44,141 nt of DNA from a virus (Duplodnaviria; Caudoviricetes). Under the pieces are notes generated by a model that did no database searches, was not told where the DNA came from, and saw only the letters and a list, made by a program, of their open reading frames with translations. The position numbers were made by a program, and so were the translations under genes. The stretch is taken from IMG/VR virus record IMGVR_UViG_3300034993_000102, positions 1 through 44,141 of that record; one strand, given 5' to 3'. This document shows positions 8,311 to 36,458 of the stretch, piece by piece. The number at the start of each line of letters is the position of its first letter. The first letter of the stretch is position 1.

Positions 8311-8817
8311 ATGAAAACCTTTTTTGCAATCCTCGCAGCGTTCGGGCTGGCGGTCAGCGCACACGCACAGTTCGGTCAGGGGCCAATCATCGCCAACGCG
8401 GTGACAAACAACCCGCTGAACAGCGTCACTGCGCCTTCAAACCCATTCATCTCGCTTGGCGTGAGCAACAACGCCGCCGTGTATAACTCCAACATCGTGG
8501 CCGGCGCGCGGCGCGCCATTCAAATCGGGCCAAACGGGTTCGGTGTCATCATCAACGCCGCGGGGCCGCTCGCCACGGCGATCACGAATATGTCCGTGAT
8601 CTTTGAACTTTCGGCCAACGGCACCATCTGGCACACGAACACGATTGCCATTAGCTATTCGCCTATGGGCGTCAACTACGCTCCTTTCTTCACGAACATC
8701 ACGCCGGCTGTCTTTCCGAACGTCGGCAACGTGTCCTCGGTTAGGTTACTGCGCATCAACAACACGAATTCCGAGGCCGTGATCTTCACGAACATTTTGG
8801 TCACTACGCGCTTGTGA
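8311..8817 (+). CDS. Signal-peptide-bearing Asn/Thr-rich protein at the head-decoration position
   Basis: MKTFFAILAAFGLAVSAHA|Q classic Sec signal with AxA site; directly after capsid gene. Confidence 0.75.
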   Translation: MKTFFAILAAFGLAVSAHAQFGQGPIIANAVTNNPLNSVTAPSNPFISLGVSNNAAVYNSNIVAGARRAIQIGPNGFGVIINAAGPLATAITNMSVIFELSANGTIWHTNTIAISYSPMGVNYAPFFTNITPAVFPNVGNVSSVRLLRINNTNSEAVIFTNILVTTRL

Positions 8818-10699: not shown

Positions 10700-11197
10700 A
10701 TGGCAGCAGCAGCGGAAATTTTAGTAGGTGCAGCCGTCATCAACGGCATTCAGGGGACCATCGCGACGACGAGCGCGGCGCCAGCCACGCACGTTATGAA
10801 CACCGGCACGCGCACCCTGAGCCACGATTTTAAGATGGAGGAGATCCCAGCCCAGAACGGAGCCACCATCGCGACTATCGTGGCCTGCCAGCGGCGCAAG
10901 ATTCTGGAGCTGGAGTTTTTCCCATCAGGAACGACGCGTGCGAACGCCATCGCGGAAGTGGCGGAACTGACGGCACTCACAGCCTACGCCGTGATCACCA
11001 TCACTCAGAGCGGCACTCCGGCGCTCGCCTCGGCTGGCTTGCAGAAGGTGGGAGGTTCGGCGGCGACCTACAACCTGATGAGCGGGATGACAACGCGTGA
11101 GTCTCGCGACGGAATTCTGAGCGTAGTTATGCGGCTCGAAGCCGTGCAAACCAATTCCAGCGACAGCCTGATTTTTGCCGCTCTCGCAATCGTTTAA
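10700..11197 (+). CDS. Putative tail tube protein, paralog 1
   Basis: Synteny; Ala/Thr/Gly-rich; clear similarity to next gene. Confidence 0.55.
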   Translation: MAAAAEILVGAAVINGIQGTIATTSAAPATHVMNTGTRTLSHDFKMEEIPAQNGATIATIVACQRRKILELEFFPSGTTRANAIAEVAELTALTAYAVITITQSGTPALASAGLQKVGGSAATYNLMSGMTTRESRDGILSVVMRLEAVQTNSSDSLIFAALAIV

Positions 11198-11210
11198 CCG
11201 AGGAACACAT

Positions 11211-11663
11211 ATGCCAGCATTTGAAATCATCGCAGGCGAGGCCGTTATCAACGGTTTCCCCGGCACAATCACCATGACCGGAGCCGCGACGTTCAACGCC
11301 GGCACGCGCAGCTTCTCGGCAGAGTTCAAGTCCGAGGACGTGCCTTCTCAGGACGGCGGGACTATTGCGACCCGTGTGGCGAGCCAACAGAAGCGGAAGA
11401 TCGATGTTGAGTTTTTCCCGACGGGCGCAACCCGCGCCGCGGCAATCGCCGTGGTTGCCTCACTGGAGGCGCTGCTTCCGCTCGACGTTATTACAATCGG
11501 CGGCTCTGGCTCTGCCGTGGCCGCAACGGTTGGGACGTGGAACCTGATTTCCATGCCAGTGTTCAAGGAGTCGCGCGACGGCATCTTGAGCGTTTCGCTT
11601 TCGCTTCTCGCGCACGAATCGACCACGGCGGGCACCTTCGCTGGCCTGACAATCGCCTCTTGA
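11211..11663 (+). CDS. Putative tail tube protein, paralog 2
   Basis: Shares AVING, GTR, G.TIAT, EFFP.G.TRA.AIA, ESRDGILSV with paralog 1. Confidence 0.55.
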   Translation: MPAFEIIAGEAVINGFPGTITMTGAATFNAGTRSFSAEFKSEDVPSQDGGTIATRVASQQKRKIDVEFFPTGATRAAAIAVVASLEALLPLDVITIGGSGSAVAATVGTWNLISMPVFKESRDGILSVSLSLLAHESTTAGTFAGLTIAS

Positions 11664-15915: not shown

Positions 15916-16506
15916 ATGTCATTAGAGAACCTATGCTTTAACCTCAGCACGGGGCGCTTCGTGCGTTCCGCGACATCGCCGACGCCGACGGACTGGCCGG
16001 TATTTGGTTACGGGGACGCGCGCGATTTCGCCGTTACGTTCGTTTCGGCCACCAGCGATACGCGCGTGCAGGTCGAGACCGCGGTGACCAGCGCGAAGAT
16101 AACCCTATCAAATCCCCTGACGCTCGCCGAGTGGACGAGCGCGGACGCCTCGGCAGCGACGGCCAGTAGCGCATTCCCGTTCCTTCTGCCGGTTACAAGC
16201 TCGAACCTGTCAACGTTTATGAGCGGCAAGATCACGAACCAGATGGCCTATTGCGAGTTCCTGCTGGGGACCGCTTCCGGCTCGAACCGATACGGATCTA
16301 CGATCTACATCAAGCCACAACTCAACACGGGGGTAACGAGCGTGGCCGTGGTTAGCGACGTGGCGCTCGGGAAGAATGAGGCGCAGGGAATCTATGTCAG
16401 CAAGGCTCCAGCCAAAGGGACAAGGATACTTTTCACGGACGAAATCACCGACCAGCTTTATTCCGTCGGGTTTGCTAACGGGCAGTTCCTGGCCGAGCTT
16501 TTATGA
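15916..16506 (+). CDS. Putative baseplate/fibre attachment protein
   Basis: YGD...F.V.F N-terminal pattern reminiscent of upper-baseplate domains; no signal peptide. Confidence 0.45.
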   Translation: MSLENLCFNLSTGRFVRSATSPTPTDWPVFGYGDARDFAVTFVSATSDTRVQVETAVTSAKITLSNPLTLAEWTSADASAATASSAFPFLLPVTSSNLSTFMSGKITNQMAYCEFLLGTASGSNRYGSTIYIKPQLNTGVTSVAVVSDVALGKNEAQGIYVSKAPAKGTRILFTDEITDQLYSVGFANGQFLAELL

Positions 16507-17894
16507 GAAACCTCTTTTTCGCTTTGATGATGTGCGCCGTGAGCGCGGAAGCGGCCTACGTGAGCGTCACTGTGACCTTCACTAACCGCACGATGATTGG
16601 CTCTAACTTCGTCGTGAACGGCGCCACGAAGCGCTGGACGAACGCGCCGCTGAACACCGTGGATTGGCTCACGACGAACTCGCCCGCGGGTAGCGCGACG
16701 AACCTTCAACGGTTCATGGCCGGGAACTTCCCGGCGTATTACTCGAGACTCACGACGGCAACCAACGTGGTGCTTTCCGGCACGGACCTTCAGTGGAGCA
16801 TTCCCGACAACGCAACCGTGGCGGACTCGTGCTGCGCCATCTCGACAAACAGCGCACCGACGACGAACTTTCACGCCATCCTCGTGCCGTGGGATACGCA
16901 GCCCTGGTCAACGAACCGCACCAACGACGCGGACGAACTCATTTACGGGCTGAACAAATACGCGCTCACGAATGCGTTTTCAACGAACGCGCAGGCGCTG
17001 TCGAACTACGTTTCAACCGGCTCAGGGGCGCAGACGTTTGGGAATAAGACGCTGACGAACTCGACGATTGCCGGCGGCACGCTCTCAACCAACGTCCTGA
17101 CGAATACGATCCGCGCGAATATCAACCTCGCCGTCATCACGAACATAACCGGATTCGGCGGCACGCTTTCAAACAACGTCGGCACGAACTGGACACGGCT
17201 GAACGTGGACAGGCTTCACGCCACGAATGCCATCGTTGACGCGCTGACAAACCGCATACTGGTGAGCACACAGATCGTCAGCTACGGAGCGGTCAAGATC
17301 AACACCAACGCAAACAGCGGCGTGGCTGCGTCGATATTGCTGGACAGCGTTTACTCGTTTTTTGCGGCCGGTAACTACGTCGGGATCGAGAACGTGGACA
17401 CCGGCCAGCAAATGCTGCGGATTGAATACGGCGGCAATACGGTAATCCCGGCACCACTGGTCGCGAGCAACGGCGTGACCGCCTACACCAACGCGCTCAC
17501 CGGGAACAACCTCACGAACTCAGTCATCCGCGGGACGAATGTTTGGAACGGGTCAGTGATTTACACGCCGCGCGCGAACAGCGGGCTCGCCAATGGATTC
17601 AACTCCGGGATCATCCTCGGGACAAACGTGTACGTACAACTCTCGGGGCCGTCGGGGCTTTACACGAACGTCGGCTTCGCGGCTGAACCTTCCGGATCTT
17701 ACCATATCGTGCGGCTCGCGATGCCAGCGGCCAACGTGACCATCCGAAACAATGACGGCCTGGAGGCGACGGCCGAGAACCGAATCACGACCGGCACGGG
17801 CGGCGAGCTGGTGCTCACGAACAATCCAGCCTGGCTGAAAGTCATTTACGACGGCACTAGCAGCCGGTGGCAGGTCATCGATCGGAGCAACTGA
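16503..17894 (+). CDS. Signal-peptide-bearing, TN-rich fibre-like protein
   Basis: MRNLFFALMMCAVSAEA|A signal; about 25 TN dipeptides; C-terminal YDGTSSRWQVI like tail-fibre domains. Confidence 0.7.
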   Translation: MRNLFFALMMCAVSAEAAYVSVTVTFTNRTMIGSNFVVNGATKRWTNAPLNTVDWLTTNSPAGSATNLQRFMAGNFPAYYSRLTTATNVVLSGTDLQWSIPDNATVADSCCAISTNSAPTTNFHAILVPWDTQPWSTNRTNDADELIYGLNKYALTNAFSTNAQALSNYVSTGSGAQTFGNKTLTNSTIAGGTLSTNVLTNTIRANINLAVITNITGFGGTLSNNVGTNWTRLNVDRLHATNAIVDALTNRILVSTQIVSYGAVKINTNANSGVAASILLDSVYSFFAAGNYVGIENVDTGQQMLRIEYGGNTVIPAPLVASNGVTAYTNALTGNNLTNSVIRGTNVWNGSVIYTPRANSGLANGFNSGIILGTNVYVQLSGPSGLYTNVGFAAEPSGSYHIVRLAMPAANVTIRNNDGLEATAENRITTGTGGELVLTNNPAWLKVIYDGTSSRWQVIDRSN

Positions 17895-17897
17895 CGA

Positions 17898-20800
17898 ATG
17901 AAAACCTTTCTCTCCCGCCTCATCACGCACGCCCCGCGCGCGCTCGTGGGAATCGCCGTTCTCGCTGCGGTGTCATTACCCACGGGCGCGCTCGCCGTCA
18001 CCAACTCTGTCTCTTTTGATCTCGCGAACTACGGCGCCACATCGGTTTCTCGCAAGCTGGTCCGCATTGAACCCACGACGGACACCTTCCCGCGCGCGGA
18101 CGGAAACACGGTCATCGGCCGGGATTACGGGTTTGTTCGGACGGACGCGAACGGCAAGTTCACAAATTCGATGGTGACTGGGACATACAAGATCACCTTC
18201 ACGAACAACTTTGTGGCGAGCGTTTTTCAGATCACCGTTCCCGACACGAACTTTTCCGGGATTCTGACCGCAGCAGAGTTGACCAGCACGGGGACGAACC
18301 TGCCGAGCAACCTCGCCGGCTACTCCCAGACCGCGGCAAATAGCATGTTCGCCAAGCGCACGAATGCGTTCCAAATCATGCTCACGAACAGCGTGGCCAT
18401 GCACACGAATCGAGGGTTTACGAATATCGACTGGGTTTCAGGTGTGACGGGATTCGTGAGCGGAGCAACAATCAAGCTGGGCGTGGATGTTGCTGCGGCT
18501 GGCGGTATCAGCGCGGCCACGGCGACAAACATCGTCAACGCGAACGCCATCGCGATTCAATCGGGAAACGGCAACGCCACCACGCTAACGAATGCAACGC
18601 TGCGCGCCAACGCGACGAACGATCCGCTGATTGTGCGCGACGCCTCGGGGAGGGCCATCCTTAGCTTCGGAACCAACAACATCCTTTGGCTTGGGACAAA
18701 CGGCAGTTTCGACAGCCAAACCGCCGTGCTGCTTTTGTTCCCGCTCGCTGGCGGCTCGAACCAGATCGGGATTCCGTTCACGAACGGCGCGCAATACGGG
18801 ATTCGCCAGCTCGGCACCTATCGCACCGAGACTGCGGGGAGCAACTACACGGACTCCACCTGGTCGCTCGGATGGAACCTTGAAGGGAAAAACAACACCG
18901 AGCCGATTGCCGGGCTGCAAATGGAGGCCGCTTATCGCAACAGCACGAACGACGCATTCCTTTGGGAAACGTTCTGGAGCGTCACCGGAACCAATCGCGC
19001 CTACTCGCAGCGACCGTGGGGCTTCACCGCCAACCGCTCGAACGGCGTCGCCTACACCATCAACCAATACAGCGAGAATCTTTCCATCTACGGCGGGACC
19101 AGCACCGAACCACGCCTTCAAATGACGAGTGGGAACTCCTGGTATTTCTGGAGCCCTGTTTTCGGAAGTAACGCGATCCTGTGCGTGGCGGGGGATGGCA
19201 AGGTTGCGCCCGTGACGATCACTTATCCGCTCGCGGCCAGGACCAATACCACGGTTGGCTTGCCGCTGGCCCTCGTCATCACGAATTTCTGGAACGACAA
19301 CCTGACGCTAACGGCGCCGAATGCGCAGGCGGGCGGGGACGATCTCGCGCTGCGGTTGCGCGCCGTTGGAAACGGCTATTCGCTGGACTGGGTAGCAAAC
19401 TATTACAACGACGCGATCATCGAGAGCTACCGATGGCTGCTGCACCAGACTAACAGCGGGAACGCTTACAGCAACGTCATGGTAATTGACCGGGGGCGGG
19501 TGGGGATAAATCTCCCGCTGGTTGCAGCGGGCATCACGCCCACAAACGGCTTCGACGTGAACGCGCACTCAGGTTTTCGTAGCAATGTTTGGATGCATGG
19601 ACTCAAAACAAACGCCTCGGTGGTTTCATACGTCGGGAAAACCACGGGTGGGGAATTGGTTGAAACGGCCGTCCCGGCTGCCTCAGGCGGAACCAATACC
19701 CTTTTCTCCACCAATGGCGTCACGCTTGGCTCTGCCGGGACAGTGAACTGGACTGCGGGCGTCACGGGATATCTCGCGGGTGCCATTGCCCATCTCGGCG
19801 TGAACGTCACGGGCAGCGGCGCGGCGGCGATTGGATGGCAGACAAACGGCGTGGACGCGGCCACCAACGCCAACGTGTTCGTAGTGTCAAACACCGCGAG
19901 CATTCTTTGGAACGCGCACTCGAACAACAGCGGGCGGGTGTCGTTCATCGCGGACGTGGCTACGGGCGTCACCAACGGACTGAATACCCGCGTCGGAAAT
20001 CTCGAGGGCGTCACCAATTCCTTCGTGACGCTCACCACCGCGCAGGACATCACAGGCAGCAAAAGCATAGGCTCGCTGACGAACAAGACGAACGCGACTC
20101 TGAGCGGGCAGTTCATCCGAACCGTGCAGCGCCTCGGCAACGGGACCGTGCCGGCCGCTTCAAATAATTTCGTCATCGTCACCAACGCGGATTTCACCCT
20201 CGACTTCGCCGGCACGCGCACCACGGGCGACCGCTTCGGACTGGCCATCTCGAACTACAACGAGAACACCGATATCACTGTCACCTGGCCCGGGAACGTT
20301 TACGACTCGACCGGCTACGTCGGCGCCTCCGTGCTCAAGAGTAACGCGGTTTATTCGTGGGAGTTTGAATATCTCACGAACGGCGGGAGCAACACGTTTT
20401 ACATGGTGCCGAAGGTTTATCCAACCTACTCGCTCGTTGCCGGCGTGGGCCTCGGCTTCGCGACGAACTATTACACGATCACGCTCACGAACACTGGAGC
20501 GGCGTTCCTCACCAACTGGGCAAACTCCATTTCCAACCTGGTGCAGACGAAGCAGTACGGGACCGCGGCCCTCAGCAACATCGCCAATATCACGAAAACC
20601 GCAGAGGTAGTGAGCGGCGCCGGGAACGGAAACACAAACTACCTGCTGACGCTCTCGACGAACGCGCTAAACGATTTCTACCTCGGCTCATCTAACGTCC
20701 ACATCTACACCGTGGGTGGCTCGACGCTCGGATCGCCGATTTTCTGGACGGCCTCTATCACGAACTTGAGCGCGATCAGTTGGGGGATCAATTTCAGCAG

Positions 20801-20945
20801 CCTGACGAACCGCTGGCGCTACTCGGGGATCTACGGGACAAACGCGCCTTCCGTGCTCACAAACGGGACTTGCCTGATGCTTGCGGGCCGCACCGACGGG
20901 ACGAATTGCACCGTGGGTTACACGTATTTTGCGCCCGGCTTATGA
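17898..20945 (+). CDS. Large signal-peptide-bearing, TN-rich tail fibre-like protein
   Basis: Basic N-region, hydrophobic core, ALA|V site; RTDANGKF..GTYKITF fibre N-terminal-like domain; VTLTTAQDITGSK fibre repeat; about 40 TN. Confidence 0.7.
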   Translation: MKTFLSRLITHAPRALVGIAVLAAVSLPTGALAVTNSVSFDLANYGATSVSRKLVRIEPTTDTFPRADGNTVIGRDYGFVRTDANGKFTNSMVTGTYKITFTNNFVASVFQITVPDTNFSGILTAAELTSTGTNLPSNLAGYSQTAANSMFAKRTNAFQIMLTNSVAMHTNRGFTNIDWVSGVTGFVSGATIKLGVDVAAAGGISAATATNIVNANAIAIQSGNGNATTLTNATLRANATNDPLIVRDASGRAILSFGTNNILWLGTNGSFDSQTAVLLLFPLAGGSNQIGIPFTNGAQYGIRQLGTYRTETAGSNYTDSTWSLGWNLEGKNNTEPIAGLQMEAAYRNSTNDAFLWETFWSVTGTNRAYSQRPWGFTANRSNGVAYTINQYSENLSIYGGTSTEPRLQMTSGNSWYFWSPVFGSNAILCVAGDGKVAPVTITYPLAARTNTTVGLPLALVITNFWNDNLTLTAPNAQAGGDDLALRLRAVGNGYSLDWVANYYNDAIIESYRWLLHQTNSGNAYSNVMVIDRGRVGINLPLVAAGITPTNGFDVNAHSGFRSNVWMHGLKTNASVVSYVGKTTGGELVETAVPAASGGTNTLFSTNGVTLGSAGTVNWTAGVTGYLAGAIAHLGVNVTGSGAAAIGWQTNGVDAATNANVFVVSNTASILWNAHSNNSGRVSFIADVATGVTNGLNTRVGNLEGVTNSFVTLTTAQDITGSKSIGSLTNKTNATLSGQFIRTVQRLGNGTVPAASNNFVIVTNADFTLDFAGTRTTGDRFGLAISNYNENTDITVTWPGNVYDSTGYVGASVLKSNAVYSWEFEYLTNGGSNTFYMVPKVYPTYSLVAGVGLGFATNYYTITLTNTGAAFLTNWANSISNLVQTKQYGTAALSNIANITKTAEVVSGAGNGNTNYLLTLSTNALNDFYLGSSNVHIYTVGGSTLGSPIFWTASITNLSAISWGINFSSLTNRWRYSGIYGTNAPSVLTNGTCLMLAGRTDGTNCTVGYTYFAPGL

Positions 20946-21511
20946 AGTGGATCGCATTTCTGATCGTGTTTTCTTGCACGGCTCAAAGCCTGCGCCAACC
21001 CGCCTACGTGGCGCAGCTACAGCGACCAGCGGCCGCCGCGGCTGGCACGGAATGGGTTACAGGCGTCACGGCTTTCGGCACCCCGAGCAACGTGTTCGAT
21101 CTTGAAATCGGTTGCCGGATTCAGATCGGCGCGTCCGATGTCGTGGTTACACATCTTGGGAGATGGGTGAAATCCGGCAACAGCCAAACTCACGTCATTC
21201 GCATTCAGGGGATCGATTGCAACACGCTCGCCAGCGCCACCGTGGATTGCAACGGGGCGGCGGCCGGCGCTTTCGTTTACGCCGCGCTGGCTAGTTCGTT
21301 CACGATGACGAACGGGGCGTATTATCACATCCTGTCTGCCGAATCCAACGGGGGGGATGATTGGTATTACGCCACCACGACGGTTTCCACGACGGGCGTT
21401 GAGGCGGCATTGAATCGCGCCTATGCAAGCCTTGGAGGCGCGGCGGGATGCACTGCTGAGGACGCAAATCAAATCTTTGGGCCGGTGAGCTTCAAGTATT
21501 CATCGCCGTGA
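20942..21511 (+). CDS. Exported beta-sandwich protein (DUF4082-like)
   Basis: MKWIAFLIVFSCTA signal-like start; VTHLGRW..GNSQTH...LASA pattern; start moved to ATG 20942. Confidence 0.6.
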   Translation: MKWIAFLIVFSCTAQSLRQPAYVAQLQRPAAAAAGTEWVTGVTAFGTPSNVFDLEIGCRIQIGASDVVVTHLGRWVKSGNSQTHVIRIQGIDCNTLASATVDCNGAAAGAFVYAALASSFTMTNGAYYHILSAESNGGDDWYYATTTVSTTGVEAALNRAYASLGGAAGCTAEDANQIFGPVSFKYSSP

Positions 21512-22140
21512 ATACGCCCCGCAATCGCATTCATCCACGCGACTTGCGCCGCGGGGCCAAGGTGCAGGCCGTCACCCTCGCAAGTGATAGGGCTGAGTTT
21601 CTTCTCGGAAATGCAATCGCCGGAAACGATGCGGCAACTCCCGCCGAGGCGCTCACGGATCAGCTTGTTGACCGGCGCGACATCAGCAAAGCGGTTCGGC
21701 AACAACTCGCACACGACGACGGGGACTTGAGCGGGGACAAAGGCGCGCAGGGCTTCGAGGTTAGCCACGATACTTTCAGGGCTGGCGCCTCGAACAAGGT
21801 CATTGATTCCGCTTTGCACGACCACGGCCCTTGCCGTTCGCAGAGATTGATAAGATCGGGCGCGGATCAAGAGTCGTCCGGTTGGCTCGCCGCCGATGCC
21901 GAGATTGAGCGCGGGCGATGCGATGCGGTTGACGGGCAGGGATTGGATCAGGCTGTCGCCTATGAACACCACGCAGCCGGCCTGAGCGGTTGCGTCCGCG
22001 CTGGCGTGCGCGCGCTCGATCCACTCCGGGCGCTTGCGTCCGCGCATCTCATCGAACACGCGATCCCAGTTCGCGTTTCGAGTGGCGTAGAGAAACGACA
22101 CAGCGAGGCAAACCAACAGGGAGGCAAGGATTTTCTTCAT
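21469..22140 (-). CDS. SGNH/GDSL hydrolase with N-terminal signal/anchor
   Basis: VFIGDSL, NLGIGG, SGIND, DGLH blocks; MKKILASLLVCLAV start with GAAGGA upstream. Confidence 0.9.
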   Translation of the reverse strand: MKKILASLLVCLAVSFLYATRNANWDRVFDEMRGRKRPEWIERAHASADATAQAGCVVFIGDSLIQSLPVNRIASPALNLGIGGEPTGRLLIRARSYQSLRTARAVVVQSGINDLVRGASPESIVANLEALRAFVPAQVPVVVCELLPNRFADVAPVNKLIRERLGGSCRIVSGDCISEKKLSPITCEGDGLHLGPAAQVAWMNAIAGRIHGDEYLKLTGPKI

Positions 22141-22226
22141 TGGTCCTTCGTGATGATGGCGTGGAGCATGACGAGGGCGACGCTGGAAAAGACGATGCCG
22201 TGGATGAGCCAGACAGTTGTTTGCAT
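22137..22226 (-). CDS. Small hydrophobic peptide, 29 aa (MQTTVWLIHGIVFSSVALVMLHAIITKDQ)
   Basis: ATGA-coupled to SGNH start; single TM-like stretch. Confidence 0.4.
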   Translation of the reverse strand: MQTTVWLIHGIVFSSVALVMLHAIITKDQ

Positions 22227-25200
22227 TCTCGGATTCTGCCTGATGAGCGCGCGGGGCGCAACGGTAATCGGTGACGAGGCCGCCCTTGTCAGCTTGCCGA
22301 ACCACGCGCAATACGGCCTGACGCCACACTTCAAGCCGGGAGATGGCGAGACGCCGGATTTCAACCCGCCCATCTTCAGCTTCAACGCGAGAACCAATTT
22401 CGCGACATCGGACTCGACGCTGGATTCGCAGGTTTACCAATATCAGTTGCAGGTTTTCCGTGAGACGCAGATGGACGTTTACACAAACGACGTTGTTTTC
22501 TACATGGGGGACTCTTACACGGCGGCTTACAACTGGTCGCAATACGTCACCAATTATCTGATGCTGAAGCCGCGCTGGCAGTTTCAAATGGCGGTTTCCG
22601 GTGACACCCTGGGGCGAGCTTACAGCAACCAGTGGCCGCTGGTGAAGGCGATGCTTGCAGCCACTAATTTCCCGGCTTTGCAGAATGGCAACGGGCGAAT
22701 CATTTTGGAGTTCCCGATTGGCGTGAATAAGAACTACGCTCCGTCCTACGTCAACCCGCCGGAGTATGAGTTCCGGGATTGGATCGCCACTTATTCAAAC
22801 ATCGTTTGGGAGGCAGGGCAGTCGAACATGCTCGTGGTGGGTTTCACAATTCCCGAAATCTTTGGTGACGCCACGGCGGGAACTTACGGCGCATCGACGA
22901 ACTACTGGCCGGACTATTGGCGAACCCCGATCAACAATTTTCTCCTGCACACACAGAAGCTGTGGCACGTCGTGGACATATTCAGTTTGTATCCGTGCGG
23001 CGTTCCGATTTGCCCCGGCACGGATGGCATTCACCCGGACGACTATCACCCCATCTCGACAAATGTGGTTTTCACGCTGCTCTACTCCAACGCGATCAAC
23101 GTGCGGACCACGAGCAACCTTGAGAACCGACACCGGCCTTTCGTCGGGAACGAATCGACCAACCTGAACCTTTATTGGCGCACGCTCTACATCGGAACGA
23201 ACGGATCAACGAACGCCGTCAGCGCGACGCGCACTTACGTCGTGGCCACCAACGCGACGAATTGGAATCGCTCCTTTCTCGCCGATGACAACTACCTGAC
23301 GAACAAGTTCTCCACCAACCTATTGATGTTCAGCGCGGCGACGCGCTCCAACGCCGCCTGGTTTCTCGGTACCAATGGCGGGGCAGACAAATGGCTGGCG
23401 CTCACGAATTGGGCAGCGACAGCGACCAACTCCGCGTGGTGGGTAGCAACAACGGCGTGGGACACCAACAACTTTTTGCTGAACAGCGAAGACCTCGGCA
23501 TCATGTCCGTGCTCCTGCTCTCGCAACTCAACACCAACACCGGCACATGGACGAACCGGCTCGCGGACAACATAGGGCGCTTTACCGTCTGGGCGCACGG
23601 CGCACCAGACAAGCTCATCTTCTACGACTGCAACGCTTGTTATCCGCTGACACAGCGGACGCTCGCGCTCTCCTACGTCTGGGGCCGGTCGCTACTCTCG
23701 ACGCTGCAACGCACGAACTTGCTGGCGGCACTGGAGAAGGTTTGCACGTTCATGGAGCAGGGAGGGGGCTTTTACAAATCAGAGCACCTTTACGTCGCGA
23801 CGAACGATTACACCTTCACATACGACAAGCCGGAAACCTCGCCCTGGTTCAACTCCCAGAAATACGGCGAGTCGCACATCTCGGCAATGTGGCACAACTG
23901 GAGCCTTGCGCCGCTCGCCATTTACGCGGATTCAACCGTGGGCCGGCGCGTGTTCGATCTGTGGGTGAACTACCTCATCGGACGCGGCTCGCCGTGGGTC
24001 AACAGCAGCCGGCACATGATGGGGCGGGGCTACGGCTTCGCCAACTTCGGCACGCCAGACGTTTACGGCAGTGCGATTTTCTACGCAGCGGCACTGCCTG
24101 AGGCGGGGCTGACAAATTCGCCGTGGATGAAGAACACCGTCGATTGGTTCAGCCGCATGATTCAGCCGGGCGCGCACGAGGTTAGCGGGGAATGGCAGGA
24201 CGGCGGACTGGGAGGCTCAAAGGAGCTTTACTGGGCAACGCCGACTTTCGGGCGCAACGCCGCGCTGCTGACCCGCGACGGCGTGGCGTGGCATCATTAC
24301 CAGAACCAGAACACGATTCAGGCGAACAGCGATAACGTTTGGCCGGACCTGATGATCGAGGCGTTTCCAATGTGGCCACCGGGAACGCCGGCCACCAACA
24401 CCGCGGCGCGGCTATTCATTGACGACGGAGCGGTTATTTCCACCACGATTGCGGCAAACCGAATCGACAGCTTCACGAATGGCGTGAGCGTGGTGTTCGA
24501 GGCGCGACCCTACGGCCCGGAAGGCAATCACTCGCTCAATTCCGACTTGGCGCTTCAGGTCATGGCCTACGGCGGACTGAGCACCGGCAACGGCTCGGAC
24601 GTGTGCTGTATCGGCGGCGGATTCGGCTTCAAGCCGTGGGCGAATAACGTACCGCTAATCAACGGCGCCGGCGCTTCGTTCCCTGACCGCGGCCACGCAG
24701 CGCAATCGTCCTACTCGCGCATCACCGCCTACACTAACTCCGACGATTTCACCTACTTCGTTGGCGACGCGCTCGGGACCGTCACGAACGGCACGAGCAG
24801 TATTTCCAACATCGTGACGGCCTACCGCAGGCGCGTCCTGCACATGCACCGCCCGGGCGAGCCGAGTTACATCGCCGTGCGCGACGAGATTCCGACCGGC
24901 TCGACGCTGACCACGAACCAGCTTGTTCACCACATCCAGGTCGCCGGGCTGACTAACCTGAGCACGAGTGGGTTTCGTTTTCCGTCCACGAACTACGCCG
25001 GCCAAACGATGAGCAATTATCTCGTTGTGGCGATGGTCAACGGGACCGTGAGCAACTTCACGGGCACGAACGTCCTCCGAAATGCCTTCACAAGCGTTTG
25101 GACGACGGACGGGGATTCAACGTTTCGGCGGGCCAACGCCGTTTGGTTCAACTCCACTAACAGCGTTTTCCATTGGCTGCTTTACCCGGTGCAGTCCGGC

Positions 25201-25368
25201 GCCTCGCAACCTTCGACGCTCACTGTCTCGACGGACGGCGCCTTTTCGGTCGTCAACGGCTCGCAGCGCGACTCCATCACATTTGCCGAAAGCAGCGTGA
25301 CGCTGGATTTGATCGTCACGTCAACCAACAACCCCGTGCGCTTCCGCGGCCTGAAATTCCGCCCATGA
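22204..25368 (+). CDS. Exported multidomain putative depolymerase: SGNH esterase plus heparinase II/III-like lyase fold
   Basis: PGDGE..FNPPIF N-terminal motif; YMGDSYT, AVSG, GVN, DGIHP (SGNH); PYGPEGNHS..., NNVPLING, YFVGDA, RRRV, YIAVRDE (heparinase II/III-like). Frame is open from 21508, so true start is uncertain. Confidence 0.7.
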   Translation: MSQTVVCILGFCLMSARGATVIGDEAALVSLPNHAQYGLTPHFKPGDGETPDFNPPIFSFNARTNFATSDSTLDSQVYQYQLQVFRETQMDVYTNDVVFYMGDSYTAAYNWSQYVTNYLMLKPRWQFQMAVSGDTLGRAYSNQWPLVKAMLAATNFPALQNGNGRIILEFPIGVNKNYAPSYVNPPEYEFRDWIATYSNIVWEAGQSNMLVVGFTIPEIFGDATAGTYGASTNYWPDYWRTPINNFLLHTQKLWHVVDIFSLYPCGVPICPGTDGIHPDDYHPISTNVVFTLLYSNAINVRTTSNLENRHRPFVGNESTNLNLYWRTLYIGTNGSTNAVSATRTYVVATNATNWNRSFLADDNYLTNKFSTNLLMFSAATRSNAAWFLGTNGGADKWLALTNWAATATNSAWWVATTAWDTNNFLLNSEDLGIMSVLLLSQLNTNTGTWTNRLADNIGRFTVWAHGAPDKLIFYDCNACYPLTQRTLALSYVWGRSLLSTLQRTNLLAALEKVCTFMEQGGGFYKSEHLYVATNDYTFTYDKPETSPWFNSQKYGESHISAMWHNWSLAPLAIYADSTVGRRVFDLWVNYLIGRGSPWVNSSRHMMGRGYGFANFGTPDVYGSAIFYAAALPEAGLTNSPWMKNTVDWFSRMIQPGAHEVSGEWQDGGLGGSKELYWATPTFGRNAALLTRDGVAWHHYQNQNTIQANSDNVWPDLMIEAFPMWPPGTPATNTAARLFIDDGAVISTTIAANRIDSFTNGVSVVFEARPYGPEGNHSLNSDLALQVMAYGGLSTGNGSDVCCIGGGFGFKPWANNVPLINGAGASFPDRGHAAQSSYSRITAYTNSDDFTYFVGDALGTVTNGTSSISNIVTAYRRRVLHMHRPGEPSYIAVRDEIPTGSTLTTNQLVHHIQVAGLTNLSTSGFRFPSTNYAGQTMSNYLVVAMVNGTVSNFTGTNVLRNAFTSVWTTDGDSTFRRANAVWFNSTNSVFHWLLYPVQSGASQPSTLTVSTDGAFSVVNGSQRDSITFAESSVTLDLIVTSTNNPVRFRGLKFRP

Positions 25369-25468: not shown

Positions 25469-25681
25469 ATGAGATCGAAGGAGCCGGTGCTCTGGAGCTG
25501 GCGCGGGATGCTGTCGGTTCTGATGCTTTACGTGGCGGCGGAAAACACGGCCATCCGAAAGGAACTCCGGGCCCTGAACGTTTCAGCCACCGCGAACGCC
25601 GTTCGCCTGGTGCGAATTGAGCGACTGTTGCAGATCGAACAAGTGAACACAGAAAAAGCCTATGGACTCATCCCTCATTGA
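25469..25681 (+). CDS. Small membrane/coiled-coil protein (lysis region)
   Basis: Hydrophobic stretch followed by heptad-like segment. Confidence 0.5.
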   Translation: MRSKEPVLWSWRGMLSVLMLYVAAENTAIRKELRALNVSATANAVRLVRIERLLQIEQVNTEKAYGLIPH

Positions 25682-25931
25682 CCTGATACCGGAAAAGTAT
25701 CGCACCTACCTGCTGCTGATTGTGGCGGTGTCTCCCTATATCACCCGCGCATTGCACGCCGTTATGAACGGGCGCGGCATCAAGGGCATTTTCAGCGCCA
25801 TCTGGCTAGGCACGAACACGCCAAACCCTGGATCGTCCAACCCGCAAAACAAGAATGGACCGCCTGACGCCGAAGAACCCACGCTGATAAAGGATCTCCG
25901 CAAGCTCGACGACCCGAAAAGGCTGCCATGA
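25662..25931 (+). CDS. Putative holin
   Basis: Small, hydrophobic/amphipathic N-half, charged C-tail, located after tail genes. Confidence 0.45.
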   Translation: MDSSLIDLIPEKYRTYLLLIVAVSPYITRALHAVMNGRGIKGIFSAIWLGTNTPNPGSSNPQNKNGPPDAEEPTLIKDLRKLDDPKRLP

Positions 25932-26041
25932 AAACCACTCTCATCCTTTGCCTTCTCGCGCTAATCTTGGCCGGCTGTTCAAGCGCAGACACGGTGGGCC
26001 ACGCATGGCCGCGGGCTTCGACGACATCAACGAATTTATGA
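25928..26041 (+). CDS. Small lipoprotein, 37 aa
   Basis: MKTTLILCLLALILAG|C canonical lipobox; ATGA-coupled both ends; not in ORF track. Confidence 0.7.
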   Translation: MKTTLILCLLALILAGCSSADTVGHAWPRASTTSTNL

Positions 26042-26382
26042 AAATCCAGATCGCAATCGCAACGGCCGCACTGAGCTGCGGGTTAGTCGGGTGCATCAAT
26101 CCCGTGCCGTCAACGAAGTTCAGCGGCACAATCGGAGGCCAGCCGTTCGAGTTCGAGGGCCATAAGCAAACCAGCGTGGAGAAGCTCGCGCTCGAACTCA
26201 ACCAGGGGACCAATCATTTCACGCTCTCAATCGGAAAGCTGAGTTCCGTCAACGACGAGCGGGTTATTTCCAAGGCCTACGCCGGGCAAGCCGCGGTGAT
26301 GAAAACCGCTTTCGACGGCGCGAACAATCTCGTCAGCAAGATGATCGAGGGCGGGGTGAAAGGCGCGAGCCCGGCGCCGTGA
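26038..26382 (+). CDS. Lipoprotein (possible spanin component)
   Basis: MKIQIAIATAALSCGLVG|C lipobox; start moved to ATG 26038. Confidence 0.65.
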   Translation: MKIQIAIATAALSCGLVGCINPVPSTKFSGTIGGQPFEFEGHKQTSVEKLALELNQGTNHFTLSIGKLSSVNDERVISKAYAGQAAVMKTAFDGANNLVSKMIEGGVKGASPAP

Positions 26383-33051: not shown

Positions 33052-33302
33052 ACCCGATGCGCCGAACGCAGTGGTCTCTGCTCTTCGCCGAACTCCGCGC
33101 TTGGATCTCCGCTATCCCCGAGGCGCGCCACGCGGCCACCGCGGTTTGCGATGGCTGCGGGAAGCGGCTGTTCCTAGTCAGGGGCCGGCACAGCGGGAAA
33201 TACTTTTTCTCGCACGATGGACTGAGCGGGTGTGAGTCGGCTCGGGCTGTGTTCTTCGACAACAAGCAGGAGGCCGAAACGGCCAGGGAGGTTTTCAAGT
33301 GA
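33048..33302 (+). CDS. Hypothetical protein with CxxC
   Basis: Coupled ORF. Confidence 0.55.
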   Translation: MNPMRRTQWSLLFAELRAWISAIPEARHAATAVCDGCGKRLFLVRGRHSGKYFFSHDGLSGCESARAVFFDNKQEAETAREVFK

Positions 33303-34273
33303 GCGAGCAAAAATTCATTGCATCAATGATCGGTTTCAAAGCCACCAACGCGGATTTAACCTGCCAGGGTTTCAAGTTTGAAATCGGGAAATGGCACGAG
33401 ATCGACGGCGAGATCGAACTGTGCAAGCGCGGGTTTCACTTCTGCGTTCATGCGTCTGGGCCATACGCCCACTACTCACAATCGGACGCGCGCGTTTTCA
33501 AAGTCGAAGCGGAACAGGTTTTGAAAGTTCCGACCGAGGCCGGGGCCGATTTTAAGCTGGTGGCGAGGCGCATTCGGCTGGTGAGCGAAATCACGCCGGG
33601 AGGAGACGGGAACACCGGAGACAGGAACACCGGAGACGGGAACACCGCAGACGGGAACACCGGAAACAGGAACACCGGAGACAGGAACACCGGAAACTGG
33701 AACACCGGAAACTGGAACACCGCAGACGGGAACACCGGAGACAGGAACACCGGAAACTGGAACACCGGAAACTGGAACACCGGAAACAGGAACACCGGAT
33801 ACGGGAACACCGGAAACAGGAACATCGGAGACGGGAACACCGGAGACGGGAACACCGGAGACGGGAACACCGGAGACAGGAACACCGGAGACAGGAACAC
33901 CGGATACGGGAACACCGGAAACTGGAACACCGGAAACAGGAACACCGGAGACGGGAACACCGGAGACAGGAACACCGGAAACTGGAACACCGGAAACGGG
34001 AACACCGGAAACAGGAACACCGGATACGGGAATTCAGCCTCTTACTGCACTGGTTTTTTCTGCTCAAAGGATCCGCGCGTTCTATCGTTCGATGTCCAGA
34101 CAAAGCTGACGCACGCCGAATTTCTGGAGAATCACCCGGAGGCCAATACGCTTTCCGAGCTACTCCTAAAGCCGGAACTGATTGAGTTCGCGCCGTTCAA
34201 AAGGATTCCGGGGATCACCAAGTCGAAGCTCGCGAAGTTGCACGCGGCGCACCTGAAAGCGAGGGCCGCGTGA
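33299..34273 (+). CDS. Pentapeptide (NTGxx) repeat protein with N-terminal C..GFHFC domain
   Basis: GFK...LTCQGFKFEIG...LCKRGFHFC domain followed by about 29 G[DNY][GRW]NT units. Confidence 0.85.
   Translation: MSEQKFIASMIGFKATNADLTCQGFKFEIGKWHEIDGEIELCKRGFHFCVHASGPYAHYSQSDARVFKVEAEQVLKVPTEAGADFKLVARRIRLVSEITPGGDGNTGDRNTGDGNTADGNTGNRNTGDRNTGNWNTGNWNTADGNTGDRNTGNWNTGNWNTGNRNTGYGNTGNRNIGDGNTGDGNTGDGNTGDRNTGDRNTGYGNTGNWNTGNRNTGDGNTGDRNTGNWNTGNGNTGNRNTGYGNSASYCTGFFCSKDPRVLSFDVQTKLTHAEFLENHPEANTLSELLLKPELIEFAPFKRIPGITKSKLAKLHAAHLKARAA
33602..34033 (+). repeat. 15-nt coding tandem repeat GGA NAC NGG AAC ACC, about 29 units
   Basis: Directly visible. Confidence 0.95.
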
Positions 34274-35825: not shown

Positions 35826-36458
35826 ATGAAAATAAGCATCAAAAGCATTGCCGGATCGGTCCTGTTTGAAGGCGATTTTAGTTGCGTCGCCGAAGCGGTG
35901 AAAGCCGCGATCAAAAGTTACGCCGACTTGCGTTACGCCGACTTGCGTTCCGCCGACTTGCGTTACGCCGACTTGCGTTCCGCCGACTTGCGTTCCGCCG
36001 ACTTGCGTTCCGCCAACTTGCGTTCCGCCGACTTGAGTTCCGCCGACTTGCGTTCCGCCGACTTGAGTTCCGCCGACTTGCGTTCCGCCGACTTGAGTTC
36101 CGCCGACTTGCGTTACGCCGACTTGCGTTCCGCCGACTTGAGTTCCGCCAACTTGCGTTCCGCCGACTTGCGTTCCGCCGACTTGCGTTCCGCCAACTTG
36201 CGTTCCGCCGACTTGAGTTCCGCCGACTTGAGTTCCGCCGACTTGCGTTCCGCCAAAAACTCAGAACTCGCCGTCGCCATGACGCGCATTTTACCCGAGG
36301 GCAGTATCGTCGGATGGAAGAAATGCCAGGGTGACGTGATCGTTAAGCTACTAATCCCGGCCACCGCGAAACGCAGTTCCGACTTCGGTCGCAAGTGTCG
36401 GGCGGAATTCGCCGAGGTGCTGGAGGTAAAAGGCGCGGAAGAAGAAATGCCAGGGTGA
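35826..36458 (+). CDS. A(D/N)LRS pentapeptide repeat protein; C-terminal DUF5758-like domain truncated by a duplication
   Basis: 22 pentapeptide units, then LPEG..VGWKKC...GRKCRAEFA. Confidence 0.85.
   Translation: MKISIKSIAGSVLFEGDFSCVAEAVKAAIKSYADLRYADLRSADLRYADLRSADLRSADLRSANLRSADLSSADLRSADLSSADLRSADLSSADLRYADLRSADLSSANLRSADLRSADLRSANLRSADLSSADLSSADLRSAKNSELAVAMTRILPEGSIVGWKKCQGDVIVKLLIPATAKRSSDFGRKCRAEFAEVLEVKGAEEEMPG
35922..36251 (+). repeat. 15-nt coding tandem repeat GCC RAC TTG MGT TMC, 22 units
   Basis: Directly visible. Confidence 0.95.

Follow-up and report, generated by a model that had tools for sequence, protein, structure and literature searches.

Signal-peptide-like leaders and a Thr-Asn excess on candidate outer virion proteins of a tailed phage

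The window analysed here is a 44,141-nucleotide stretch of DNA from an uncultured tailed phage that is likely to be temperate and long-tailed. The genome ends have an 11-base overlap in common. Among the sequencing runs listed, one DNA run contains the sequence as a single piece and may be its source, and no RNA run was listed. The genes considered are given in Table 1. In gp16503, gp17898 and gp20942 a basic n-region opens the N-terminus, followed by a hydrophobic core and then by a cleavage site with small residues, and an additional leader, overlooked by an earlier note on this DNA, was found on gp8311, the gene of which lies immediately 3' of the major capsid protein (MCP) gene. Leaders were called using a home-made Sec rule, in some cases by eye, and not using SignalP; the rule was composed after the window sequences and the hydrophobicity values of the homologues were known, and with alternative starts allowed it gives false positives such as a tape-measure gene. 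Four of the 26 window proteins were positive by this rule (gp8311, gp16503, gp17898 and gp20942), and the rule called none of the 16 leaderless proteins tried from the head, neck, tube, tape measure and tip. The earlier note had described the upstream tube, tape-measure and baseplate genes as lacking leaders. The same note described four consecutive signal-bearing genes. Leaders were confirmed for gp16503, gp17898 and gp20942 and a weaker one was seen on gp22204, but the genes are not consecutive, as a minus-strand SGNH gene lies between the last two.

Table 1. Coordinates and predicted features of the genes discussed.
Feature	Coordinates	Strand	Description
gp8311	8311..8817	+	TN-marked, with leader and jelly-roll domain; likely decorates the head; directly after protease-MCP
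gp15916	15916..16506	+	Leaderless, putative tail-tip adaptor (role from position)
gp16503	16503..17894	+	TN-marked; leader, N-terminal beta-sandwich, stalk modelled at low confidence, fibre-tip domain at the C-terminus
gp17898	17898..20945	+	Leader, Stf/DEV-gp53-type virion-anchor domain, long fibre; TN-marked
gp20942	20942..21511	+	Leader, short conserved peptide, lectin-like body; DUF4082 E 0.007
SGNH/GDSL esterase gene	21469..22140	-	Pfam Lipase_GDSL_2 E 9e-7, PHROG E 1e-14; hydrophobic N-terminus; 0 TN
gp22204	22153..25368 (start 22153-22204 uncertain)	+	TN-marked; weaker leader, predicted polysaccharide lyase of heparinase II/III-like type with inserted SGNH-like segment
Three small lysis-position genes	25469..26382	+	Two membrane-type (25469-25681, 25662-25931), lipoprotein (26038-26382)

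The inverted SGNH gene is likely to be a moron expressed in the lysogen and to stand outside the virion module; in the related locus L014 its slot holds an inverted methyltransferase gene. A reading of 21508-25368 as one gene of 1286 amino acids was rejected in favour of the minus-strand SGNH gene followed by a later start. The GC content by codon position was 0.71/0.49/0.65 in the plus frame from 21508 and 0.64/0.48/0.72 on the minus strand, and the long plus-strand frame is probably a shadow of the SGNH gene. Candidate starts for gp22204 are the ATG codons at 22153, 22168, 22195 and 22204. Its N-terminus has a strong hydrophobic core (3.1) and an A-x-A-like site. Read from 22204 it contains no K or R and so fails the Sec rule, which it satisfies when an ATG further upstream is used. 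The prophage L156 homologue (29%, E 1e-72) has a clear leader and lacks the SGNH-like insert. The top ESM Atlas match of gp22204 scored 0.92, Hepar_II_III_C was present in 94% of members and the best 10 named matches all agreed (10/10) with a DUF4962/toroid/Hepar_II_III architecture; searches of Pfam and PDB sequences and a word-index search for homologues returned zero matches. The protein is likely to be a capsule or EPS depolymerase, and in relatives its slot is filled by other leader-bearing glycanases, a beta-helix lyase in L014 and a GH27 enzyme in prophage G318. The likeness of gp20942 to the syntenic L014 gene is limited to the first ~45 residues, comprising the leader and an LRxPA[FY]VAxL peptide that is a possible docking tag. 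Of the four products in the earlier note, only gp16503 and gp17898 are fibre-like, with gp20942 being small and lectin-like (DUF4082) and gp22204 lyase-like. The three small genes that follow contain hydrophobic segments and a lipobox and may have lysis-related roles; family searches gave no matches for them, and no endolysin was recognised in the genome. A promoter and terminator scan gave fewer sites than were found in shuffled sequences.

The earlier note had proposed looking for signal peptides in homologues, and the Sec rule finds them for gp16503 in 31 of its 35 homologues and for gp8311 in 31 of 32. The four gp16503 misses consist of one fragment, two truncated starts and one sequence in which a leader is visible by eye. 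In fold, residues 19-124 of gp16503 are similar to domains that protrude from virions (sheath 8kee, Z 9.7, rmsd 1.9, 81 aligned) and residues 352-463 to domains of tailspikes and capsid spikes (24qj, Z 7.8, rmsd 3.1, 90 aligned), where Z-scores of 7-10, for this protein as for gp8311, are in the range of common arrangements; the stalk has a pLDDT under 50 in the monomer model. The C-terminal domain also lies at the C-terminus, or close to it, in fibre-like leaderless proteins of unrelated phages, and its comparison with cultured-phage records gave four weak matches (E 0.07) annotated as tail fiber. Trimeric autotransporter adhesins of the YadA family have a signal peptide, YadA_head repeats and a C-terminal outer-membrane beta-barrel anchor. 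The likeness of gp16503 homologues to these adhesins consists of the signal peptide and YadA_head (PF05658, in 10 of the 35), whereas no YadA anchor was matched in Pfam and the AF2 C-terminal domain of gp16503 is the beta-sandwich common to the leaderless phage proteins.

A gp15916 homologue lies directly upstream of a gp16503 homologue in the metagenome loci L014, L015, L020, L021, L022, L025, L027, L028 and L029 and in prophage G318, and gp15916, which might conceivably be BppU-like, would be the docking site for the exported fibres. The family gave no Pfam or PDB match of note, single-protein scans of viral contigs with gp15916 and gp13399 gave zero relatives, and so did a profile search of genome contigs with alignment A2. 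A model of gp15916 together with three gp16503 chains (residues 19-200) scored 0.00, but the fold of the partner was uncertain and the score speaks neither for nor against docking. In L001, L016, L017, L026, G189 and G305 the gp16503 homologues precede the tape-measure gene.

The mature N-terminus of gp17898 is weakly matched as a virion-anchor barrel. The family profile, A6, matched the N-terminal barrel of DEV gp53 (E 0.0016) and the N-domain of lambda Stf (E 0.038; hhalign probability 56%, E 1e-4). Among its members 7 of 21 matched PHROG tail protein 1718 and 6 of 21 matched Pfam phage_tail_N (PF08400), with the window member matching neither. The fold is of a generic transthyretin-like type, the best PDB match of A6 being NOMO2, and CarboxypepD_reg was found in 8 of the 21 members; cultured-phage records gave no match for the gp17898 anchor. 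The mature N-terminus of the gp17898 family aligns along the full length of the anchor barrel in Pseudomonas phage DEV gp53 (9COD) and lambda Stf (9E7M), and a long variable body comes after it. In these two proteins the aligned barrel starts at chain residues 3-4 without a leader, while gp17898 has a leader of 33 residues ahead of the barrel and three times the expected Thr-Asn. In the DEV paper 15 N-terminal barrels of gp53 are modelled as a virion collar, a model that the authors call hypothetical (PMC11445570). In host genomes a leader was present at 17 of 20 anchor-family loci, some of them called by eye, and leaderless members of the family are also present in the same host order. The L014 counterpart of gp17898 is divided into two leader-bearing genes.

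In host genomes seven homologues of gp8311 lie directly behind a head gene or one small gene further, as in G318, where a small gene intervenes; the neighbouring MCP was confirmed by PHROG at six of the seven loci, and these MCPs belong to three families. The AF2 model of gp8311 (pLDDT 80) is a jelly roll of CBM-like type, for which the best Z was 9.1 (rmsd 3.7, 129 aligned), given by an Eph receptor domain tied with CBMs, while the best Foldseek match was birnavirus VP2 (E about 6e-4). No match to the fold of a solved phage decoration protein stood out in the structure-match lists. Capsid decoration or cement proteins of tailed phages, among them lambda gpD, T4 Hoc and phage L Dec, are added late to the capsid surface. 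With this class gp8311 has in common a gene for a small beta-protein immediately behind the MCP gene, but it differs in its conserved, cleavable-looking leader and jelly-roll fold; the protein is likely to be a head decoration protein.

In prophage G318 the gene set recurs in the window's arrangement, and the members with leaders are those that have them here. This prophage belongs to the order that contains a Limisphaerales-labelled genome, and the host of the phage is probably a member of Limisphaerales (Verrucomicrobiota). Counting against this assignment, the best match of a flanking gene in L026 is labelled Ca. Baltobacteraceae, ahead of Verrucomicrobiia matches.

A virion role for the module is supported by its gene position in unrelated phages and by the tail-fibre anchor domain. 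The earlier note had raised the alternative that these are lysogen surface proteins. In a fuller form, the proteins would be exported to work at the cell surface or in its surroundings as lysogen adhesins, receptor decoys or capsule-clearing glycanases that aid the release of progeny, and would never be virion parts. A precedent is the mosaic adhesive trimer (MAT) of Bdellovibrio, which is phage-fibre-like, has a signal peptide followed by a conserved N-domain and variable tips, and is displayed on the cell surface; MATs are chromosomally encoded and 13 of 21 contain an S74 domain (PMC10769870). The window fibres have in common with MATs a signal peptide followed by a fibre body, but they are encoded in a phage late operon, gave no S74 match and belong with a gene fixed behind the MCP. 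Some support for a cellular role comes from G067, G155 and G024, where leader-bearing anchor-fibre genes lie among host genes with no head, tube or tape-measure gene recognised nearby, which indicates that export can persist without a particle; the G067 gene adjoins a gp6-like connector gene. The ordinary bacterial glycanase folds of gp22204 and its replacements, and the inverted moron within the module, point the same way. Set against these, the module genes overlap or abut structural genes within the late operon, gp8311 homologues keep their place after MCPs of three unrelated types, and gp17898 retains a virion-anchor domain after its leader. Searches matched no outer-membrane anchor family, and full-length or N-domain homologues of gp16503 were found in 2 of 301 genomes of the inferred host order, in both within prophage DNA. 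Family searches also recognised no leaderless fibre or spike anywhere in the genome, although a leaderless receptor-binding part could reside in the tail-tip proteins 14196 and 14915. A purely cell-acting role is judged unlikely.

If the outer parts are exported, the question is what export provides. The earlier note proposed periplasmic disulfide formation, citing several paired cysteines. The mature forms of gp16503, gp17898, gp20942 and gp22204 contain 2, 3, 4 and 7 Cys and mature gp8311 contains 0. The four in gp20942 and some close pairs in gp22204 would suit a disulfide role, but of the 35 gp16503 homologues 23 have no mature Cys, nine have one and three have two, and the CC of gp16503 is not conserved. 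Disulfide-driven export was rejected on these counts and is considered very improbable; the proposed export of the module itself retains support from the conserved leaders and from a Thr-Asn (TN) excess that also marks predicted exported proteins of the inferred host group.

In the window the leader-bearing proteins contain 106 TN pairs compared to 32 expected (3.3x), and the leaderless structural proteins 11 compared to 13 (0.84). The excess is carried by gp8311 (6 vs 2), gp16503 (25 vs 7), gp17898 (42 vs 13) and gp22204 (32 vs 9); gp20942 has a leader but no excess (1 vs 1). Prophage G318 gave 38/12.7 for leader proteins and 8/9.0 for leaderless ones. Within single families, the gp16503-type C-domain gave 95/41.8 with a leader and 13/15.6 without, and the gp17898 anchor family 177/58.7 (17 proteins) with and 5/7.0 (3 proteins) without. 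In host genome G305, TN ranked first of 400 dipeptides in predicted exported proteins (494/291), compared to 228/185 (1.23) in cytoplasmic proteins; in G309 it ranked first of 391 in predicted exported proteins (182/98), and the 'cytoplasmic' set was likewise enriched (95/57, rank 1). Leaders that went unrecognised, or a bias of the whole genome, may account for the cytoplasmic enrichment in these two Verrucomicrobiae genomes. In the exported sets Pro seldom follows TN (14/983 vs 62/1390; 9/493 vs 163/2879), whereas the cytoplasmic set shows no such depletion (11/228 vs 154/2683). TN was not notably frequent immediately past the cleavage site of host proteins (13/118 vs 9.3 expected).

Campylobacter PglB glycosylates N-X-S/T, and Bacteroidota O-glycosylate D-S/T. 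The TN mark resembles these systems in being a short motif over-represented in exported proteins, with Pro avoided after Asn, but differs in the motif itself, which is T-N. The classical N-X-S/T signal was rejected, with 54 sites against 52 expected in the window leader set and 564 against 531 in host exported proteins, and STT3/PglB was found in 0 of 10 genomes searched, five from the inferred host order and all possibly incomplete. The search for a modifying enzyme identified none; the GT-C families PMT_2 and TMEM260-like occurred in five of five genomes including controls, and are thus uninformative. Modification directed to Thr-Asn would be a better candidate reason for export than disulfides, and it might be glycosylation, though at somewhat less than an even chance.

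The TN excess could instead be a structural or compositional preference of the extracellular beta-proteins of this lineage, with the parts exported and on the virion but unmodified. The absence of N-X-S/T enrichment and of STT3/PglB, the location of several TN sites within predicted strands or helices and the excess in the G309 cytoplasmic set would all fit such a preference. It explains less well why leaderless versions of the same domains show no excess, why the reverse pair NT is depleted (0.69), why SN is not raised among host exported proteins (0.75), why Pro is avoided after TN in exported sets only, and why exported proteins of two other phyla, one genome each, show no comparable excess (Chitinophaga 17/41, Acidobacteriota 17/14). 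This preference is regarded as somewhat unlikely.

The N-terminal segments might also be uncleaved membrane anchors that keep the appendages on the inner membrane, facing the cytoplasm, while assembly proceeds there in the ordinary way. Hydrophobic leaders occur in the G189 and G318 prophages on some MCP, protease or scaffold-type genes, the products of which necessarily act in the cytoplasm, and in two homologues of gp8311 the hydrophobic segment comes after a small domain of cytoplasmic type. Anchoring is nevertheless improbable, as the cleavage-site residues A19-Q20 are nearly invariant in the gp8311 family (90% or more of homologues), the TN mark goes with the exported class and positive charge precedes the hydrophobic core. 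By the positive-inside rule, charge before the core puts the body of the protein outside.

Taken together, the leaders and the Thr-Asn excess suggest that the outer parts are likely finished outside the cytoplasm. The explanation we favour, with rather better than even confidence and from sequence evidence, is that the parts of fibre, lectin, lyase and head-decoration type leave the cytoplasm, probably receive a modification at Thr-Asn, and join the particle by docking at lysis. The capsid, the tail and the gp15916 adaptor would be assembled in the cytoplasm, while the outer parts would leave through Sec with cleavage of the leader, and a host enzyme would probably modify them at Thr-Asn. On breakage of the inner membrane at lysis the exported parts would meet the finished particle, and attachment by the anchor barrel and short terminal peptides would take place during or after lysis. 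In a broader and distinctly tentative reading, Limisphaerales have a general Thr-Asn modification of exported proteins, and their tailed phages, whose heads are of several unrelated types, send every outward part, from head decoration and fibres to lectin and depolymerase, through Sec for decoration by the host, to be snapped on at lysis by the anchor barrel and docking peptides.

In the textbook view the assembly of tailed phages is finished in the cytoplasm, and the titles and abstract openings searched, mainly of freely accessible literature, described neither tailed-phage appendages with signal peptides nor a Thr-Asn motif. If decoration and receptor-binding parts do pass through Sec, assembly would gain a second compartment, lysis would set the timing of infectivity, and periplasmic modifications by the host would be possible. 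Annotation would discard such fibres as 'secreted morons', and production in the cytoplasm would mis-express them. The Thr-Asn excess may mark both the identity of the host and the division between exported and cytoplasmic phage proteins, and predicts a novel protein-modification pathway in a widespread, poorly studied order of Verrucomicrobiota. Should the broader reading prove true, the virion would be a two-compartment product with a host-type coat.

The window is a single contig of 44,141 bases with an 11-base overlap between its ends. It codes for lambda-like terminases and portal, a protease-major capsid protein fusion, a 390-residue tape-measure protein, an integrase and replication genes. 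No sheath was recognised among these genes, which suggests that the tail is non-contractile. Leaders (signal-peptide-like N-termini) were called with a simple self-written rule composed after the window sequences had been viewed. Four of 26 window proteins were positive: gp16503, gp17898, gp20942 (each named by gene start) and gp8311, which is encoded immediately 3' of the capsid gene and was overlooked in the earlier note. That note had described four consecutive leader-bearing fibre or spike genes downstream of leaderless core genes. The leaderless state of the core was borne out (16 of 16 tested structural proteins rule-negative), as were a basic stretch, hydrophobic core and small-residue cleavage site in gp16503, gp17898 and gp20942. 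The fourth gene is rule-negative when read from 22204, its leader having no basic residue there, and is positive by the rule from an upstream ATG. The four are not consecutive, being interrupted by a minus-strand SGNH gene (22140-21469); an inverted methyltransferase occupies this slot in the related locus L014. No leaderless fibre was recognised in the window; the tail-tip proteins gp14196 and gp14915 may yet include a receptor-binding part of that kind.

Further features of the window
Feature	Position	Strand	Remark
Tail-tube-like gene pair, adjacent and alike (165 and about 150 aa)	10700-11663	+	no family match
Holin-like and lipoprotein genes	25469-26382	+	
Two pentapeptide-repeat proteins, fused to DUF7666 and DUF5758 domains	33299-34273 and 35826-36458	+	
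Two DNA methyltransferases	39612, 40655		
Small early-region gene, hydrophobic N-terminus, 7 Thr-Asn pairs in 135 aa	34270-34677	+	outside structural operon; probably another exported protein

The leaders are conserved in relatives. The rule was positive for 31 of 35 gp16503 homologues and for 31 of 32 gp8311 homologues, the latter with a nearly invariant A-Q cleavage pair. Of the four gp16503 homologues missed, one is a fragment, two have truncated starts and one shows a leader on inspection by eye. Gene order was examined at 21 of 31 metagenome loci, and at nine of these (including two near-duplicate pairs) a gene of the gp15916 type, the leaderless putative adaptor, is followed by a gp16503 homologue. 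The homologue precedes the tape-measure gene in L016, L017, L026 and likewise in viral locus L001. A remnant prophage in genome G305 (C1, about 2314500-2323600) retains an integrase, a fragment of the major capsid protein (MCP) gene, an intact gp16503 homologue with its leader and a tape-measure gene, the genes between them being gone.

The predicted fold of gp8311 is a jelly roll (pLDDT 80, best Z 9.1), and its homologues sit after MCPs that belong to three PHROG families; at 6 of 7 loci the identity of the MCP was confirmed. At L140 (1489-2139, minus strand) and L155 (903-1862, minus strand) a small domain (phrog_2616 in the case of L140) is fused in front of the homologue, and a signal-like segment lies internally; at L156 (2153-2803) two hydrophobic segments precede the jelly roll. 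In predicted structures the gp16503 N-domain resembles virion protrusion domains (Z 9.7) and the C-domain tailspike and spike domains (Z 7.8), both middling scores. The C-domain is found too in fibre-like proteins without leaders from unrelated phages, and YadA-head repeats occur in 10 of 35 homologues. The family profile of the mature gp17898 start (the anchor; 21 rows, two near-duplicate loci excluded) matches the N-terminal barrel of gp53 from Pseudomonas phage DEV (E 0.0016) and the lambda Stf N-domain (E 0.038). Seven of the 21 members match a PHROG tail family and six Pfam phage_tail_N; the fold is generic, NOMO2 being the best PDB match of the profile. In DEV, 15 such barrels were modelled as a virion collar (PMC11445570).

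The L014 counterpart of gp17898 consists of two leader-bearing halves, the outer one 75% identical across the last 157 aligned residues. Split fibres with leaders on both halves occur at L014:8384-10569, L021:3890, L022:5166, L019, L023 and L024; the acidic motif x-x-[DE]-D-G closes the anchor half and K-[IV]-S-x-L opens the outer one, and the halves are likely a two-piece docking pair. Between gp20942 and the syntenic L014 product the common part is the leader and a short peptide after it, nothing more. In the Atlas comparison (0.92) gp22204 is similar to lyases of the heparinase II/III type, and its slot in relatives holds other leader-bearing glycanases. A short C-terminal motif is alike in the exported enzyme-type proteins gp22204, L016:4807, L017:4610 and L156:5554 (hydrophobic-R/L-G-x-K/R-hydrophobic in three, looser in L156). 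It is a possible docking tag, and none of 118 exported host proteins has it.

A flank gene of the L026 prophage has its closest matches mostly in Verrucomicrobiia, the single best record being labelled Ca. Baltobacteraceae. Genomes were searched in the order of G005, whose locus carries a Limisphaerales label. In that order, 8 of 301 genomes had a match to the gp16503 profile: the N-domain was covered in G305 and G189, where the gene lies in a prophage and retains its leader, the repeat region only in five genomes and the C-domain only in one. With the gp8311 profile, matches came from 6 of 301 genomes, and with the anchor profile from 19 of 401. All elements of the plan recur in a G318 prophage: terminase, portal, protease, MCP, a gp8311 homologue with a leader, tape measure, adaptor, homologues of gp16503 and of the anchor that both have leaders, and a GH27 enzyme that has one too. 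These matches point to a Limisphaerales host for the window phage.

The earlier note offered disulfide bonding as a possible reason for export, which finds no support, Cys being absent from mature gp8311 and from 23 of 35 gp16503 homologues. N-X-S/T sequons were at chance in the window leader proteins (54 vs 52 expected) and were dropped as an explanation. The Thr-Asn dipeptide (TN) occurs 106 times against 32 expected in the five window leader proteins, gp20942 being the exception (1 vs 1), and 11 times against 13 in the 16 leaderless structural proteins. The G318 prophage gave 38/12.7 (observed/expected) with leaders and 8/9.0 without. Proteins with the gp16503-type C-domain gave 95/41.8 with leaders (35 proteins; one lacking the domain excluded) and 13/15.6 without (13 proteins), and the anchor family 177/58.7 and 5/7.0 (three proteins only); family counts are not independent, the homologues being related, and host and single-phage counts are cleaner. 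In 800 kb of G305, TN ranked first of 400 dipeptides in 118 predicted exported proteins (494/291) and 24th in 235 cytoplasmic ones (228/185), while in 240 kb of G309 it ranked first in both classes (182/98 exported, 95/57 cytoplasmic). Exported proteins of Chitinophaga (n=17; 17/41) and an Acidobacteriota genome (n=33; 17/14) showed no excess. Pro following TN is avoided in exported sets only. No TN-modifying enzyme was identified: a search of 10 genomes for STT3 was negative, and the PMT_2 and TMEM260-like families were present in each of 5 genomes, the controls among them. Leader-bearing fibre-like genes of unrelated phages (L009:8441, L002:10548, L034:4933 and 6605) show no TN excess (23 vs 18); export and the TN mark are thus separable.

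Leader-bearing phage-like fibres can instead act at the cell surface rather than on a virion, as do the signal-bearing mosaic adhesive trimer fibres of Bdellovibrio (PMC10769870). In G067, G155 and G024, anchor-fibre genes with leaders persist in host surroundings, with no phage recognised around them. They lie among housekeeping genes at L258:14249-16216 (G067), L256 around 15733 (G155) and L260 around 13680 (G024), and the same arrangement is seen at L240, L244 and L250. In several genomes, including G067, a gp6-like head-tail connector gene pairs with the fibre gene, and such host-borne genes may be a domesticated cassette. A leader alone is no proof of export, because head genes of some related prophages, whose products must function in the cytoplasm, carry hydrophobic leaders. 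These stand on major capsid, protease and scaffold-type genes at L148:5211-8305 (G189) and L261:8850-9947 (G318), several ending in C-[FC]-A-N, and MCPs at L142, L153 and L154 keep only [FL]-A-N-D; possibly the heads are assembled tethered to the membrane and released by protease.

What the sequences show directly are the leaders, the gene positions, the anchor homology and the TN excess. From these we infer, for the presumed outer parts of the virion, export, modification and docking, by a route that on balance we hold to be probable. Head, tail and gp15916 adaptor would be put together in the cytoplasm; the outward-facing parts would pass the inner membrane via Sec and be cleaved, a host enzyme would probably modify them at Thr-Asn, and they would attach to the particle once lysis mixes the compartments. 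Pfam and PHROG scans recognised no endolysin anywhere in the window, which counts against this mechanism. Signal-bearing tailed-phage appendages and the Thr-Asn motif were not found reported in the literature searched, mostly open journals and main texts. With the window a host order can be named, the TN motif is controlled against host proteomes and the system is seen in a Cys-poor version, and an export-then-attach route, if true, would be new in kind against published knowledge.
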